Below are positions 9,157-33,613 of a stretch of 64,000 nucleotides of DNA, in pieces. The stretch lies in assembly GCA_045837725.1 (NCBI GenBank), contig JBEWZL010000198.1, positions 1 to 64,000 of the forward strand, written 5' to 3'. Under the pieces are notes generated by a model, which was not told the DNA's origin, did not search any database, and was given only the letters and a program-made list of their open reading frames with translations. Origin of the DNA: Vermamoeba vermiformis. Taxonomy: Eukaryota. Numbering within the stretch: position 1 is the stretch's first letter; the number at the start of each line of letters is the position of its first letter. Position numbers and translations under genes: made by a program.

Positions 9157-11109
9157 CTACTCCAGTATTGAGAGTGCAGACAGTCTTGGGTTGTCCATAA
9201 CTAGCAGGTTGAACTTGGCAGCAATCTTGGACTTGTCATTGTCCACCAAATACGTCCACAATGAATGCAGCAAGCTGGTTACTTCATTGCACGACAGCTT
9301 GCTCAGTACCATGAATTGCAGTGGCAGTGGTGGCAACAAGCCACTGTTTTGCAAACAAGCAACTAGGTCTCCAGTCACGTGCTCAAGCTTTCCTTGTTGG
9401 GAGGGGTTTGCATGCGATAGACTGTGCCACATGCCAGTCACTACAGCCACTGCGCTGTTGAGGAATTCTTTGCTGGAGGACGTCAAGCCTGGAAGGGCAG
9501 TTAGAACAGCAGTGAGGAGCTAAAAATGGCGTACCAGTTGATGCAAGTGCAGCAAGAACTATAAATAGACACGAGCGCTGCGTCAAGAGCTGAATCACGT
9601 GCTGGTCGTACTCAAACGGAGATTTCTTGGGCAAGCTCTCACGGTATTGGTCGGTTGAAGGGCGCGGCAGATGACTGGGTAGCACGTGACTGAAGAATTC
9701 AGCTTCCATCCACGAGTGCAAAGAGCCTAAAAATAGCTGTCAGCATCGAGTCCGCGGCATCTATCTGGTCAGTGCCTTACTATATTTAGTAATCAGTCCT
9801 ACGAGCAGTGCAGCACTCTGTTCATGAACGTTTTGAGCACCGGACATTAGCTCGGACATCAGCGAGCTAAAAATAGCTTTGACTTCAAATTCGGCCAATT
9901 CTCCGCTGAGTACAGCTGCCAATTGAGCTAAAAATAGCAGTCAGTTGCGAGCTGTGCGCGAGTTGGTCCCGTACCGTGTTTGACACGTGTCATGCGCTCA
10001 ACTGCAGGCACGTGATCGTTGTTCCGATCCTGCAGACCAAGTTGCTCAACCAGGGCCGCGAATTTGACACTTGACACGTGCTGGCACTCACTTGTCTCCG
10101 GAGTGACGATATCGATCACTTGCCTAAAATAGATTGCGTGAGTTCAGCTAAAAATAGCACTCATTGGAGTACCTCAGTGCCGCGTGTCCGTGGAGTTCAT
10201 CTACCAGGGTCAACACAGCAGTCACGTGCTCCAAGTCCGCTACGTTGTGTTGCAGCAGTGCTGTCACGTGATTGCTGACCAATGGCACGAGTTCTGCGCC
10301 CTCCACGGCCCTGGTCAGCAGCACGTGATGCACTGAGGCGCGGAATAATTCACAGGCGGGGTGATCACGTGATCGCTGTTGCCTAATTAGGGCACCGAGT
10401 GTGCAATACAGTGGCCAGTGCTCGCGAGTCCAGCACGTTATCAGACACGTGACTGCATGCTGTTCTAAAAATAGCTCGTACAACCACTGCACGGCACTGT
10501 CGAGTGGTGCGTCACGTGACAGAGCGATGAATTCATTGGCCATCTCTGCGGCGAGTGTTGTCATGGTCACGTGCTCATCGGATGAAATTTCTGCAATGAA
10601 ATACTGTCGCAGCAGTGGCCAGGTCTGCGCTGTGAGCACGTGATTCAGTGAATGCGGTGCCGTGCGGTACTGACGCAACAGACCAATCACGAGCAGTGCT
10701 GTCACGTGCTTGTACTGTACCACTCTTTCCAAATTAGGCAATGATTGCGCGAGTTTGCTTTGCACCAATGCACGGCACTGGGTGGCAAATGGCACGTGAC
10801 GCCAGTGCGCGCGACAGAGGTCTTCGAGTGCGGCTAAATATAGCTCGTGGCTGTCAGACCACGCGCGCTCGATCAGCAGTGGCAGCAGTGCAGTCACGTG
10901 ATAGGCAGTCACCGTCACCAGCAGTGCGCGGTGGTGTTGTTGCGCAGCGAGCAGTGCGAACAGTTGCGCGAGGTGCGAGGGAGAGCAGTGGCAGCAGTAG
11001 TGTGGTCGTGTTCAGCGAGCAGTGCACTCACGAGCAGCACGGTGCGGTACTGCGCGGCTGTGGGGGGCACCTGGGGGGACTGGGCGGCTGTGGTCTCCTG
11101 GATGTGCAT
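9157..11109 (-). CDS. Unrecognised Leu-rich, probably alpha-helical protein; 5' end uncertain (further exons possible up to ~11.7 kb)
   Basis: ORF fragments 10148-10918, 9928-10119, 9383-9721 and 9157-9486 join in frame through ~45-55-nt GT-AG introns. There is an apparent frameshift near 10.98 kb. Confidence 0.6.
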
Positions 11110-11827
11110 TAGTGGGGGAGGAAATAGCGCAGTATTTGTAACGATATATTTATAGGTAAATTATTGATCGTCTCATCTGAATGCTCGCAGTGCATACCTG
11201 CAAGATGCGCATCAGCTCTTGCGGGGACAGCGCGGTCAAATCAGCGGGTACCTCCATACCCTGCGTACTCTGCATACAAGTGGTGCTTATATAACTTGTA
11301 TTATCAGTGTTATATTACTGTATTATCAGTGTTTGTTGTTGCGTCGTGTGGTGTTTAAGAAAAATAAGTCTGTGGAGAGAAAAAGGTATATAAAAATTTT
11401 TTTTTTTTTTTTAATTTTTTTTTTTTTTTTTTTTTTCTTTTTTGTTTTTTTTTTTTTTTTTTTTTTTTTTTTGATTGCTCGACGAACACGAATGGCCAAT
11501 CTTTCAATAGACACGAGCATTAGTAGCACGAAGAGCAATAATCATCAACACTAGTAGCAACACGTTATTATTGCAACACTTCAGTTGAGCAGCTAGTGCA
11601 AAGAGCAGTGAGAATACAACCAGATCTCGGCGTTAAGCAATCGGTACGTGCACTGACAGGGGATCAAAACAGCGATTGTTAGTGAACAAAAAATATGCGT
11701 AATTTATCTGCTACTATTATCTCCAATAACACTCGATCGATAGTGTTAGATCCACAGTTCTGGGAAATTCATTCGTTTGCGCAGATCCACTTACAGTACT
11801 ACTTGAGCAGGTCATGGCCCAAGAAGC

Positions 11828-31160: not shown

Positions 31161-31231
31161 TTTGACAATATATTAAAAAACGATGGTTTGTGTTTATATA
31201 CAAAAAATAACAATTAGAACTGCATCTGAGT

Positions 31232-33613
31232 TCACATCCAGTCCTTGACGTCCTCGCATGTCCAAGCAGGTCCTGATTCATATCGATATGCTTTCTTCGT
31301 CTCAACCCTCTCGGCCATAGTAACAGCTTGCATGCTCTTGATCGAGTTCGGTGGCAGCAGTCCCTCCGACACCGCGTGCTTGCATGTGTACGCAATCAAG
31401 CGGGCCATGTGCTCGTTGTTGCCCTCACGCTGCACATGATTGATTAGCACTCAGTCATCGCACAGCATGGCAATACTCACCGCCCATATGTTGCCCCAGT
31501 AACGCTTCCAGCGGTAATTGCGATACACTTCCGAGGCGAGTTCAGTGGGCTTTGTCTCGGCCCAGTCATACGTGCTCGGACTCGGATGATACATGACACG
31601 CCACATGTCCACGTGACTGCCGTTGTGCAATTCTGCAAAGATTGCAGGCCACTCAGGGAAGGAGCAGGGTGAGGGTGCAAACAGACGCCAGTACTGATCG
31701 ATCTTGAATGTGTAGGCCACTTGACGCGCGCCAGGACTCATCGACACCCAGCCGAGGTTGTACATGTTCCACCACGTCAAGTACACGACCATAAAACCTG
31801 CAAAGATGCGCACTGGACGACTAGAAGGATGAGGCTTAGGGCTGCGGCGTGTGTTCGTGGCACGTGCTGGGCCTAATTTAGCTTGACGATCACGTGCTCG
31901 ACAATACGCCACCACTCGACGTGGCAGAGTGACACGACGCAACAAGTTGAAGAGCACGGGGGACCAGAACAGACCGAGCACTGAGTGCGTGAACACGAAT
32001 TGCCAGAACTCAAAGCCCACGTGCTTGACTCCACGTGCATCTTCGACCCAAAATTGGTGCTGTCTATATTTGGTGATGCATTAATAAAAATAATGAATCA
32101 GCGTGTTATACGTACTTGGCTGCAAATGAACGACCTGACTCGACATCGGCATTGACACCTGTCACTTCTTGCTCCGCACTGTCTGACACGTGTCCAGATG
32201 TGACAGGACCAGCAACCACGTGATCATGAGGGAACAAAAATGTGTGAACGAGGCGAATGACCCACTCGCCACGTGACATGTGCAGCATGAACTCGAGACT
32301 GTTCTTAGACTCGCTGTCTTCAGTCCAATTCTCCGCTGCCAGCCAATGCAATTTAACGCCGCGCTGTCTGTCAAATCGAGCGCGGAACAATCTCGTCATC
32401 AGATCCCAAAACAGAGGTGGCAAAGTGATCGAGACGACTGCAATGCAAAACCACGGGAAAATGCCGAGTGTCATCATCACGATGAAGCCTGCGTGCAGTG
32501 CTGCAATGCCTGCCACTCCGAACAATCGCAGCCTACATCGCACTGGTCAACAGATATGTAATTGGGGTTAATTGTTCCGCTTACCATTCGGAGACAGGTC
32601 CGAAGAACAAGAAGAACGGAATGAGAATTTCCAAATACAGCACACTGAATGTCATCATGCGTGCCAGACCACTCGGCAACAGGCCACGCGCGAAGAGACC
32701 AATGCGATTGATGAACGAGTCACACTGCAACACCTTCTCCAGGGCTGTGTACCTAAAAATAGTGTCAGTGGACGCAACACTCGGAATGACACGTGTCATA
32801 CTCAGTACTCCATTCAGGGCCAGTCTTGACCACACCACTCGCATAATAACACCAAAATATCTGTGCCATCACTGCGAGTGTGCCCACACTGCCGAATCTA
32901 AATTTAGCGCCGCTTTGACCTGTCACCTCGTCATCATTGCGACGACTGGCACCGAACGATGCTGCATTTAATGGTCAGATTGCACTTGAAAGTGACAGGT
33001 GTCATCAGGACTTACACTCTCGTTTGGGGTAATGGCGTTGCAGTGCGTAGTCGACGGAATAATATGCTCCGAGCGGAACAAAACAAGCGAAGAACAAAAT
33101 GCAGCGCAAATATCTGTCACCTGCAAGAGGCATTAGTTATGTCGAGTGTCAAACGCTGTTCGTACCTCCATCGAGAACCAATTCATTGCGCGTATGAAGT
33201 GATGAATAGAGCACGTAGATCATAATAATATGGCGCTGTGATTTGTAGCCAATCAGCAGCAGACAACAGATCACAATCATAACACCGAACCACAGCAAGG
33301 CAATCTTATCCTCGCTGCTCATCAGGAACAAACTAGTGATGCCACCACTTTTCATAAGATTCCATGCTGGTACGAGACCGCTGGACTGAATGATGGAAAT
33401 TATTATTAAATTTCAAAAATCATTTTTAATTAATTATGCCGCTCTGTTGAAGGGTTCATAACTTACTGAATAGAACATATGGAAGTCTCGTAATCGCAGA
33501 AAAATGTCCATTAATAAAAGAAATGACAGTGCAATTCGAAACAGCGCAATGGATCTCAGATCCATTTCAACCGAACGACGCACCATGCCAAACACTTTAC
33601 GGGCAGTCTCCAT
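31232..33613 (-). CDS. HTTM-domain multi-pass membrane protein (vitamin K-dependent carboxylase-related superfamily)
   Basis: MDLRSIALFRIAL...DIFLRLRDFHMFY, SSLHTRNELVLDG, LHAGFIVMMTLGIFPW, IDQYWRLFAPSP, YRNYRWKRYW. Confidence 0.75.

Follow-up and report, generated by a model that had tools for sequence, protein, structure and literature searches.

Genes and features of the locus

The window, meaning the whole 64-kb stretch of DNA analysed here, begins with a transposon-rich block and continues into protein-coding genes carried on both strands (Table 1). Within the transposon block, an ORF at 273-1481 on the minus strand matched DUF7869 in Pfam (E 7.9e-39), and the ORF at 6880-7431 gave a weak match to DDE_Tnp_4 that fell below the cut-off. 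Gene A had no Pfam match and drew only a weak HEAT-repeat lead from the ESM Atlas, and the Pfam search returned no identity for the gene at 29738..30039. The last motif-rich gene had been labelled an HTTM gene in the original prediction, a label not borne out in Pfam, where the three exons tested found no match. The segment termed the motif hole contains the end of REV3, the whole of the exportin-2 gene (CSE1, minus strand), a shared promoter and the start of UTP20; the identity of the exportin-2 gene rests on a 94% relative. A protein search with a UTP20 exon among candidates of near length gave no matches. The nearest relatives that carry a name are no more than 40-55% identical.

Table 1. 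Features of the 64-kb window and their CACGTG content
Feature	Position	Strand	Content
Transposon-rich, CpG-depleted block	1..9300		CpG o/e 0.34; 0 CACGTG; almost no CG-containing palindromes
Densest motif block	9376..16355		Gene A (-) and most of REV3 (+); 61 CACGTG copies
Gene A (HEAT-like lead)	about 9160-11270	-	No Pfam match
Gene A/REV3 introns, 5' exons and shared promoter	11097..11809		RNA-supported joints; long poly-T runs; no CACGTG
REV3 (DNA polymerase zeta gene)		+	REV3_N, POL3_N and polymerase B domains
Motif hole	16356..22151		1 CACGTG copy; last 1.1 kb of REV3 to first 0.8 kb of UTP20
UTP20 gene body	22152..29086	+	29 copies, moderate density; UTP20_N, UTP20 and UTP20_C domains
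Three copies just downstream of UTP20	29738..30039		Short ORFs, next gene
Last motif-rich gene	31610..32795	-	9 copies; 7-8 per kb in two exons
Background-level region	33001..64000		CSN5, HECT ligase, UFL1, CHD remodeller and WD40 genes

Over-representation of CACGTG

The palindrome CACGTG occurs 118 times in the window, compared to 19.04 ± 3.87 in dinucleotide-preserving shuffles (largest 29). The great majority of copies (103 of 118) fall within 9376-32795, and for 9376-33000 Markov-1 and Markov-2 models predict only 14.0 and 21.0 copies, respectively; Markov models of orders 3-4 are circular as a null because the motif supplies its own sub-words. The region 33001..64000 holds 15 copies where 7-8 are expected. 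The hand counts on which the original prediction was based proved exact, with no copies in 1-9300, 17 in 9376-10900, 30 in 12575-14995 and 15 after 33000. In the confident coding exons (12,288 nt), 80 copies were observed, a 7-fold excess over a codon-order shuffle of the same exons (11.0 ± 3.3, maximum 22) and a 2.4-fold excess over a protein-preserving shuffle of synonymous codons (33.6 ± 3.5, maximum 44). Among all hexamers, CACGTG deviates most (z 20.8). The predicted excess thus survives the codon-, protein- and dinucleotide-preserving nulls within the window, and the over-representation of CACGTG is confirmed as real.

It is hardly conceivable that the copies arose as an artefact of assembly or sequencing. 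Four public runs, among them a water metagenome and an RNA assembly with spliced contigs, yielded contigs of the region that cover between 19 and all 30 of 30 bins. An independent metagenome contig from a sister species contains 21 copies, of which 18 occupy matching positions. The sequence is therefore independent of the assembly, and an artefact is refuted.

The surroundings of the core were examined for a more extended repeat or a mobile element, and no conserved sequence was found past ±2; the commonest extension of the core, CACGTGACAGCA, accounts for 8 of 206 flanks. Insertion of a mobile element or repeat as the source of the sites is rejected by the REV3 alignment, which exhibits substitutions and no insertions. 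Regular spacing of sites was not significant in REV3 and UTP20; it reached significance solely in a part of gene A chosen post hoc (CV 0.42, P 0.0016).

Distribution along the window

The sites begin at 9376, where the first copy adjoins the CpG-depleted block, and run for 23 kb. The original prediction described this as a gradient leading away from the transposons; the density is not monotonic, and the copies form a patchwork. Density is 8-13 copies per kb from 9.4 to 16.4 kb (a figure that holds for the exons of the 9376..16355 block), falls to a single copy in 16356-22151, returns to 2-8 per kb from 22.2 to 29.1 kb, is nil in about 30.1-31.5 kb, and climbs again to 7-8 per kb at 31.5-32.8 kb. 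The 5.8-kb hole is expected to hold 33.5 copies at the density of its flanks (P 9e-14). Both of its edges lie inside transcripts, as REV3 is motif-free in its last ~1.1 kb and UTP20 in its first 0.8 kb. The GC3 of the hole (0.70-0.78) is higher than that of the motif-dense exons, and its usage of His and Val codons is the same as in motif-dense coding sequence.

Non-coding DNA is also avoided. Within the dense block, introns, 5' exons and promoter together carry one copy in 1059 nt where 10.7 are expected (P 2.6e-4), and in the left block 60 of the 61 copies lie outside these tested segments, that is, in the coding part; the copies do not sit in regulatory non-coding DNA as those of an E-box cluster would. 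A patchwork with a sharp hole and avoidance of non-coding sequence fits poorly with the earlier suggestions of an anti-heterochromatin barrier, a pericentromeric or pairing signal, or a methylation-linked ratchet. CpG o/e in the motif-dense block is about 0.9-1.0; a ratchet of CpG decay alone cannot yield a seven-fold excess. That density changes so abruptly within genes suggests a process acting on whole domains, through chromatin, methylation or recombination.

Reading frames, codons and altered peptides

As originally predicted, the motif occurs in genes of both strands and in differing frames, with two of the three frames mainly used: the 80 coding copies are read as CAC|GTG in 42 cases, as xCA|CGT|Gxx in 36 and as xxC|ACG|TGx in 2. 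The expected bias of the encoded proteins is also evident, the peptides concerned being over-used two to three times. His-Val dipeptides number 45 (14.9 expected), with 42 of the 45 spelled CACGTG, and [STPA]R[GVADE] tripeptides number 53 (22.5 expected), of which 35 are spelled xCA-CGT-G. In REV3 the motif displaces otherwise conserved residues by substitution, without indels, for example DHVT in place of ENVA/ENTA and KSRDY in place of KPNNY. The copies in 33001..64000 are in mixed frames, with 5 of 15 in the frame almost unused by the dense block, and only 1 of 6 His-Val dipeptides there is spelled CACGTG.

These observations bear on the possibility that the excess is a by-product of composition, whether of a GC-rich isochore, GC-biased gene conversion or codon usage. 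The dense block does have a higher GC content (0.50-0.60) than the window's right half, and CAC and GTG are preferred codons. However, the codon- and protein-preserving nulls are exceeded as given above, the hole is nearly empty despite the same His and Val codons and high GC3, and the xCA-CGT-G frame uses A- and T-ending codons, contrary to the GC3 trend. Dinucleotide, Markov-1/2, synonymous and codon-order nulls and per-exon GC3 all fail to account for the copies, so that this explanation, very improbable in general, is refuted in the window. The assertion that simple codon usage is not responsible therefore stands: the motif is a DNA-level word, attributable neither to codon usage nor to GC content, and it reshapes the proteins in which it is written.

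Sequence flanking the core

Synonymous positions beside the core extend the motif to a symmetric 10-mer, R-K-CACGTG-M-Y. At such positions, 30 of 35 cases have a purine at -2 (p 2e-5), 31 of 35 have a pyrimidine at +7 (p 2e-6) and 34 of 42 have G or T at -1 (p 4e-5); C occupies -1 in just 31 of 236 half-sites. Each half-site is independent of the other: self-complementarity at ±1 occurs in 28 of 103 sites, with 31.0 expected. This agrees better with a protein dimer than with a hairpin or cruciform. The USF/TFE/Cbf1 class of E-box proteins prefers T or G before the CACGTG core, whereas Myc/Max prefers C. The word thus combines the CACGTG core with the symmetric flanks of a particular bHLH-leucine-zipper class.

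The flanks also weigh on an RNA-level element, in which CACGUG in the mature mRNA would be bound by an RNA-binding protein, or would pair with further copies, and so alter transcript fate. Near-confinement of the motif to exons (one copy in the 1059 nt of non-coding segments) and its absence from the transposon block are in keeping with such an element. Nevertheless, reverse-complement symmetry of the flanks is predicted by duplex DNA and a symmetric dimer and not by single-stranded RNA, self-complementarity of the sites no higher than the marginals predict argues against self-pairing of a site, and the density boundaries fall sharply within the REV3 and UTP20 transcripts. An RNA-level role is accordingly improbable.

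Conservation in a sister species

The comparison with orthologues proposed in the original prediction was possible for a 4.5-kb metagenome contig from a sister species (L001), which is about 85% identical in nucleotide sequence and orthologous to the REV3 region, and the motif is conserved there beyond background. The 21 copies in L001 correspond to 4.7 per kb, while 79 other eukaryotic REV3 loci have at most 0.75 per kb. Window and contig have 18 of 28 sites in common, one site is apparently shifted by 8 nt, and the hole is likewise empty in L001. Whole hexamers are conserved in 14 of 22 motif copies and in 445 of 1311 other hexamers (p 0.0056), and within the motif third codon positions are unchanged in 37 of 44 cases; where the same codons occur outside it, the figure is 79 of 130 (p 0.005). 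The central CpG of the motif is kept in 19 of 22 copies and other CpGs in 56 of 120, non-motif CpG being the least conserved dinucleotide. In UTP20, the 87%-identical orthologue P0166 has 17 His-Val dipeptides (5.1 expected), distant orthologues being near expectation, and retains 21 of 23 motif peptides; the residues of these peptides are conserved in 52 of 56 cases and other residues in 1332 of 1532, a difference that is not significant (p 0.23). All of this evidence comes from a single 64-kb window, a single orthologous contig of 4.5 kb and a single orthologous protein.

Conservation alone cannot separate selection from a persistent drive of biased repair. Under the latter, a sequence-specific and possibly methylation-dependent bias in mismatch repair or gene conversion would turn near-cognates into CACGTG without organismal function, and the word would build up where protein constraint permits and recombination makes heteroduplexes. 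Methylation-dependent mismatch repair has been proposed to create and maintain the highly iterated palindromes (HIPs) of cyanobacteria (Elhai 2015, PMC4390886), and such a drive would be the counterpart of that model in a eukaryote. A comparable signature is present in the window in the form of a short GC-rich palindrome in several frames, biased peptides and above-background conservation. The CpG depletion of the transposon block suggests that the organism methylates CpG, and the motif CpG is protected. Twelve sites that are not shared have an aligned counterpart, and in 4 of these 12 the difference is CACGCG/CGCGTG, one CpG transition. One-mismatch variants at the outer positions are somewhat scarce (16 observed, about 28 expected, summed). 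However, one-mismatch neighbours as a whole are not clearly depleted (99 observed vs. about 107), nor are the transition neighbours CACATG/CATGTG strongly so (4 vs. 6.6), and a drive should also act in the GC-rich introns and the GC3-rich hole, each of which has one copy. Such a drive is regarded as unlikely.

A maintained word and its putative reader

The window contains a lineage-specific, iterated palindromic word, R-K-CACGTG-M-Y, written into the exons of particular genes by nucleotide substitution. It draws on the choice among synonymous codons as well as on amino-acid replacements, and has been kept in at least two species by purifying selection or by a force that mimics it. The symmetry of the sites and the independent preferences of their halves suggest a reader that recognises the word in double-stranded DNA as a dimer with two-fold symmetry. 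The best candidate for it would be a bHLH-leucine-zipper protein of the E-box type, with the flank preference of the USF/TFE/Cbf1 class. The weakest step of the argument is that about 100 sites in 23 kb might form a dense landing pad, conferring a distinct chromatin state on weakly expressed gene bodies next to CpG-depleted, probably methylated transposons. Such a state could keep these gene bodies unmethylated or open or, conversely, damp them, and the strongly expressed exportin-2 gene and its surroundings might neither need nor tolerate sites. TET enzymes are reported to favour CpGs of CACGTG-type sites (10.1101/2021.12.29.474486). In the spliced-contig run, the exportin-2 contig has a word depth of 61 compared to 4-19 in its neighbours, which is a poor measure of expression; run X21, in which 206 RNA reads matched, was left out of expression as most reads are 90-95% alike and hence derive from a divergent strain.

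Taken whole, a maintained, dimer-read word serving as a landing pad for a distinct chromatin state is the best explanation available, and it is put forward tentatively, with a chance of being correct that is somewhat short of even. Two features of the distribution tell against it: binding sites are cheapest in non-coding DNA, yet the introns and promoter of the dense block are avoided, and there is no gradient from the transposon block, the density rising again in the last motif-rich gene.

Comparison with known systems

Highly iterated palindromes have been an unsolved puzzle of cyanobacteria for three decades. The type case, HIP1 (GCGATCGC), and the alternate palindromes are described by Elhai 2015 (PMC4390886) and in PMC13756078. 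HIP1 resembles the word in the window in being a short GC-rich palindrome many-fold above composition-aware expectation, in occupying more than one reading frame of coding sequence, where it skews codons and peptides, and in conservation between related genomes above that of the surrounding sequence. Unlike HIP1, the word in the window belongs to a eukaryote with spliceosomal introns, is an E-box hexamer with symmetric flanks and, within the 64 kb, is regional and specific to gene segments (103 copies in 23 kb, 15 in 31 kb and 0 in 9 kb) rather than evenly spread. It is less likely than not that the window holds a eukaryotic counterpart of the HIPs, a 10-bp palindrome in the exons of chosen gene segments whose density would set sharp chromatin or repair domains through a dimer or a methylation-repair system.

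The CACGTG core is the same as in the E-boxes of USF, TFE/MITF (CLEAR element GTCACGTGAC) and Cbf1, and, as in those E-boxes, T/G at -1 and A/C at +6 are favoured, C at -1 is rare, and the half-sites are independent as for a homodimer. Known E-boxes occur singly or in small numbers, in promoters, enhancers or point centromeres, whereas the window has about 100 within coding exons, reaching 13 per kb and avoiding the promoter. At the USF-dependent barrier of chicken HS4, too, CACGTG-type sites lie beside repeat-rich, probably silenced DNA, but such a barrier is a compact non-coding element and not a 23-kb patchwork within exons that is interrupted by a hole. Words that mark chromosome identity by regional enrichment include the C. 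elegans pairing-centre motifs read by ZIM/HIM-8 and the X-enriched dosage-compensation motifs. As in these, local density rather than a single copy would mark the domain; they are non-palindromic, mostly non-coding and megabase-wide, whereas the word in the window is palindromic and exonic.

The motif looks to belong to a type of DNA-level signal known until now chiefly from cyanobacteria, and a full-text literature search, supplements aside, found no paper on CACGTG arrays in eukaryotic coding exons. An independent eukaryotic case, using the best-studied transcription-factor word in biology, would add a second system for studying by what means, and for what reason, genomes over-write their coding sequence. 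Core enzymes such as DNA polymerase zeta show here that protein conservation can yield to a constraint at the DNA level. This bears on models of codon usage, on how selection acting on proteins is inferred and on predicting regulatory sites from motifs. If the proposed reading is true, domain identity encoded in sequence and paid for in amino-acid changes would be new for eukaryotic gene bodies. A scan of viral contigs for dense CACGTG triplets recovered unrelated contigs only, and the two richest of these are of high GC (0.64-0.67) and probably phage.

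Genomic context and source organism

The features of the window are listed in the table below, together with the local density of the CACGTG palindrome. In a publicly available RNA assembly, spliced contigs reveal GT..AG introns that are 45-167 nt long. DNA of the source organism occurs in data sets from freshwater, aquifers, sediments and biofilms, and its closest named protein relatives are only 40-55% identical (dictyostelid and animal proteins for exportin-2, animal proteins for REV3), indicating an orphan protist lineage. The loss of CpG in the transposon-like block points to cytosine methylation, or to RIP-like mutation, directed at repeats.

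Features of the window and local density of CACGTG
Feature	Position	Strand	Remarks
Transposon-like block	1-9300		CpG o/e 0.34; 0 CACGTG; almost no CG-containing palindromes
DUF7869 ORF	273-1481	-	E 7.9e-39
ORF with sub-threshold DDE_Tnp_4 match	6880-7431
Gene A, tentatively HEAT-like	about 9160-11270	-
Dense segment	9.4-16.4 kb		8-13 CACGTG per kb
DNA polymerase zeta/REV3	about 11.8-17.4 kb
Near-motif-free stretch ("hole")	16356-22151		1 CACGTG
Exportin-2/CSE1	17917-20528	-
UTP20	21.4-29.6 kb		2-8 CACGTG per kb
Two small genes	downstream of UTP20
Empty segment	30.1-31.5 kb		no CACGTG
Dense segment	31.5-32.8 kb		7-8 CACGTG per kb
CSN5, HECT ligase, UFL1, CHD remodeller and WD40 genes	after 33 kb		background CACGTG density

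Several minor features of these genes were observed. The shared promoter/5' region of gene A and REV3 contains very long poly-T runs (11390-11475). On the minus strand of gene A (9480-10180), many short introns terminate in almost the same sequence, ...GCTATTTTTAG, which CTGAC frequently precedes; such uniformity resembles a branch-point and 3' splice-site consensus of unusual rigidity. Stop-free frames as long as 693 aa run antisense to UTP20 and REV3 between 12 and 29 kb (e.g., 27017-29098, minus strand); these are probably by-products of codon style and not genes.

Excess of CACGTG in coding exons

The window contains 118 copies of CACGTG, compared to 19.04 ± 3.87 (maximum 29) in dinucleotide-preserving shuffles, which bears out the observation underlying the original prediction; the hand counts reported there (0 in 1-9300, 17 in 9376-10900, 30 in 12575-14995 and 15 after 33000) were exact. 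Between 9376 and 33000, 103 copies are found where first-order and second-order Markov models predict 14.0 and 21.0, respectively. Of all hexamers, CACGTG deviates most under a codon-order shuffle (z 20.8); no other six-base palindrome in the window exhibits a comparable excess, and the one-mismatch neighbours of CACGTG show no clear depletion.

Coding nulls were run on confidently assigned exons of the dense parts (12,288 nt), which hold 80 copies of the motif. A synonymous-codon shuffle that keeps the proteins yields 33.6 ± 3.5 copies and a codon-order shuffle 11.0 ± 3.3; because both are exceeded, amino-acid choice and synonymous choice are both recruited by the motif, and the earlier assertion that this is not simple codon usage holds. 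The copies occupy the frames CAC-GTG (42) and xCA-CGT-Gxx (36), with two in the remaining frame, which would require Thr-Cys or Thr-Trp. These exons encode 45 His-Val dipeptides where amino-acid composition predicts 14.9, and CACGTG spells 42 of them; for [STPA]-Arg-[GVADE] tripeptides the count is 53 where 22.5 are predicted, with the motif spelling 35. In the right-hand genes, the motif spells just 1 of 6 His-Val and 1 of 15 [STPA]-Arg-[GVADE]. Composition, whether codon usage or GC content, is a very unlikely cause of the excess, given the codon-aware shuffles and the hole, where the exportin-2 gene and the REV3 3' end use CAC and GTG equally frequently and have a higher GC3 (0.70-0.78). 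An artefact is less credible still, and the tests described here reject both readings. Nulls preserving codons and proteins, together with a hole that persists despite higher GC3, support the general proposal of a DNA-level code. Other orientation-specific words are over-represented on the coding strand of 9300-33000 (CACTGC, GCACTG, ACTGCT and TGCCAC; z 8-9, codon-order shuffle), and may represent strings of Ala-Leu-Leu and Val-Pro codons in helical-repeat proteins.

A gradient of the motif away from the transposon block had been proposed. The motif is indeed dense next to that block and at background after 33 kb, but its distribution is a patchwork. The hole would be expected to contain 33.5 copies at the flanking density (P 9e-14), and both of its edges lie inside genes. 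Non-coding DNA of the dense block, covered here by 1059 nt of RNA-supported introns, 5' exons and shared promoter, holds a single copy versus 10.7 expected (P 2.6e-4), even though some of the introns have 46-57% GC. The only intronic copy seen directly follows the GTACGT start of the intron at 14858. The patchwork, the avoidance of non-coding DNA, the lack of clear depletion of one-mismatch neighbours, and the spacing and word-depth results given below all complicate a simple regional-code reading. A role of the motif at the RNA level, which would account for the confinement to exons, is improbable, as it leaves unexplained both the motif boundaries within transcripts and the reverse-complement symmetry described below. 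Regular motif spacing was seen solely in part of gene A, chosen post hoc. Among spliced contigs of one public RNA run (X8), the motif-free exportin-2 contig from the hole centre has a word depth, a poor measure of expression, of 61, compared to 4-19 for its neighbours.

Conservation in a sister species

A REV3 alignment scan of metagenome contigs yielded 80 loci. One of these, the 4464-nt contig L001 from a sister species (~85% nucleotide identity to the window over the polymerase domain), carries 21 CACGTG (4.7 per kb); none of the remaining 79 exceeds 0.75 per kb. Identical positions are occupied by 18 of the 28 window sites, three sites are private to L001, and in one case the window and L001 sites are offset by 8 nt, as though the site had shifted. 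The hole is also empty in L001. In clean coding segments, the whole hexamer is kept at 14 of 22 motif sites, compared to 445 of 1311 other same-frame hexamers (p 0.0056) and 22 of 81 other NNCGNN words. Third codon positions are kept in 37 of 44 cases within the motif and in 79 of 130 identical codons elsewhere (p 0.005), and the central CpG in 19 of 22, versus 56 of 120 other CpGs and 106 of 179 GpCs.

The picture from one 64-kb window and one orthologous contig is that of a highly iterated, palindromic DNA word that is specific to this lineage, lies in coding exons, is maintained in two species and is strong enough to alter residues in conserved enzymes. Alignment of the REV3 polymerase domain reveals motifs created by substitution at aligned positions (e.g., DHVT for ENVA/ENTA/ENVS, EHVT for YYLE and KSRDY for KPNNY), and others that arose through the choice of codons for conserved S-R-E, T-R-V and A-R-V. 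The UTP20 orthologue P0166 (87% identical) has 17 His-Val versus 5.1 expected and retains 21 of 23 motif-compatible UTP20 peptides, a level that does not significantly exceed the background for an orthologue this distant (p 0.23); in six distant UTP20 orthologues His-Val is near expectation. At 10434-10439 the window reads CACGTT, while all three covering public runs (X21, X8 and X1) have G at 10439, giving CACGTG; the T reflects either a loss confined to the assembled strain or a mistake in the assembly. The three short introns 14696-14744, 14858-14906 and 15050-15100 are missing from L001 (880-1170), but a segment at about 16549-16612 is retained. The contig may originate from RNA that was partly spliced, or the two species may differ in their introns.

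Extended symmetry and possible readers of the word

Synonymous positions beside the core are biased: in frame xCA-CGT-G, 30 of 35 sites have a purine at -2 (p 2e-5) and 31 of 35 a pyrimidine at +7 (p 2e-6), and in frame CAC-GTG, 34 of 42 have G or T at -1 (p 4e-5). The full unit is thus R-K-CACGTG-M-Y, and no longer conserved unit was found around the core. Self-complementarity at ±1 occurs in 28 of 103 sites, compared to 31.0 expected, so each flank is chosen without regard to the other, a prediction of a symmetric protein dimer on duplex DNA and not of a hairpin, cruciform or RNA self-duplex.

The best reading, offered tentatively, is that the word is read by a predicted two-fold symmetric DNA-binding dimer. 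The most economical candidate would be an E-box bHLH-leucine-zipper protein of the USF/TFE/Cbf1 flank class, whose preferences the R-K-CACGTG-M-Y flanks fit; the density of sites could then confer a distinct chromatin state on gene bodies of the transposon-adjacent neighbourhood. The sites of bHLH-ZIP proteins share this core and flanks, but usually lie in regulatory non-coding DNA, whereas those of the protist lie in coding exons. Full-text literature searches turned up no account of CACGTG arrays in coding exons of eukaryotes, and the closest described phenomenon is the highly iterated palindrome HIP1 of cyanobacteria and its alternates (HIPs), with which the protist word shares three defining features: excess, a multi-frame coding imprint and conservation. 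The main rival to a dimeric reader, a rather unlikely one, is a function-free drive of the kind put forward for HIP1, methylation-dependent biased mismatch repair (PMC4390886), and conservation alone does not separate the two. CACGTG is also frequent in two viral contigs, probably phage, L109 (GC 0.67; 4.5 per kb) and L137 (GC 0.64; 3.8 per kb), which may have their own HIP-like word; both contigs are unrelated to the protist.
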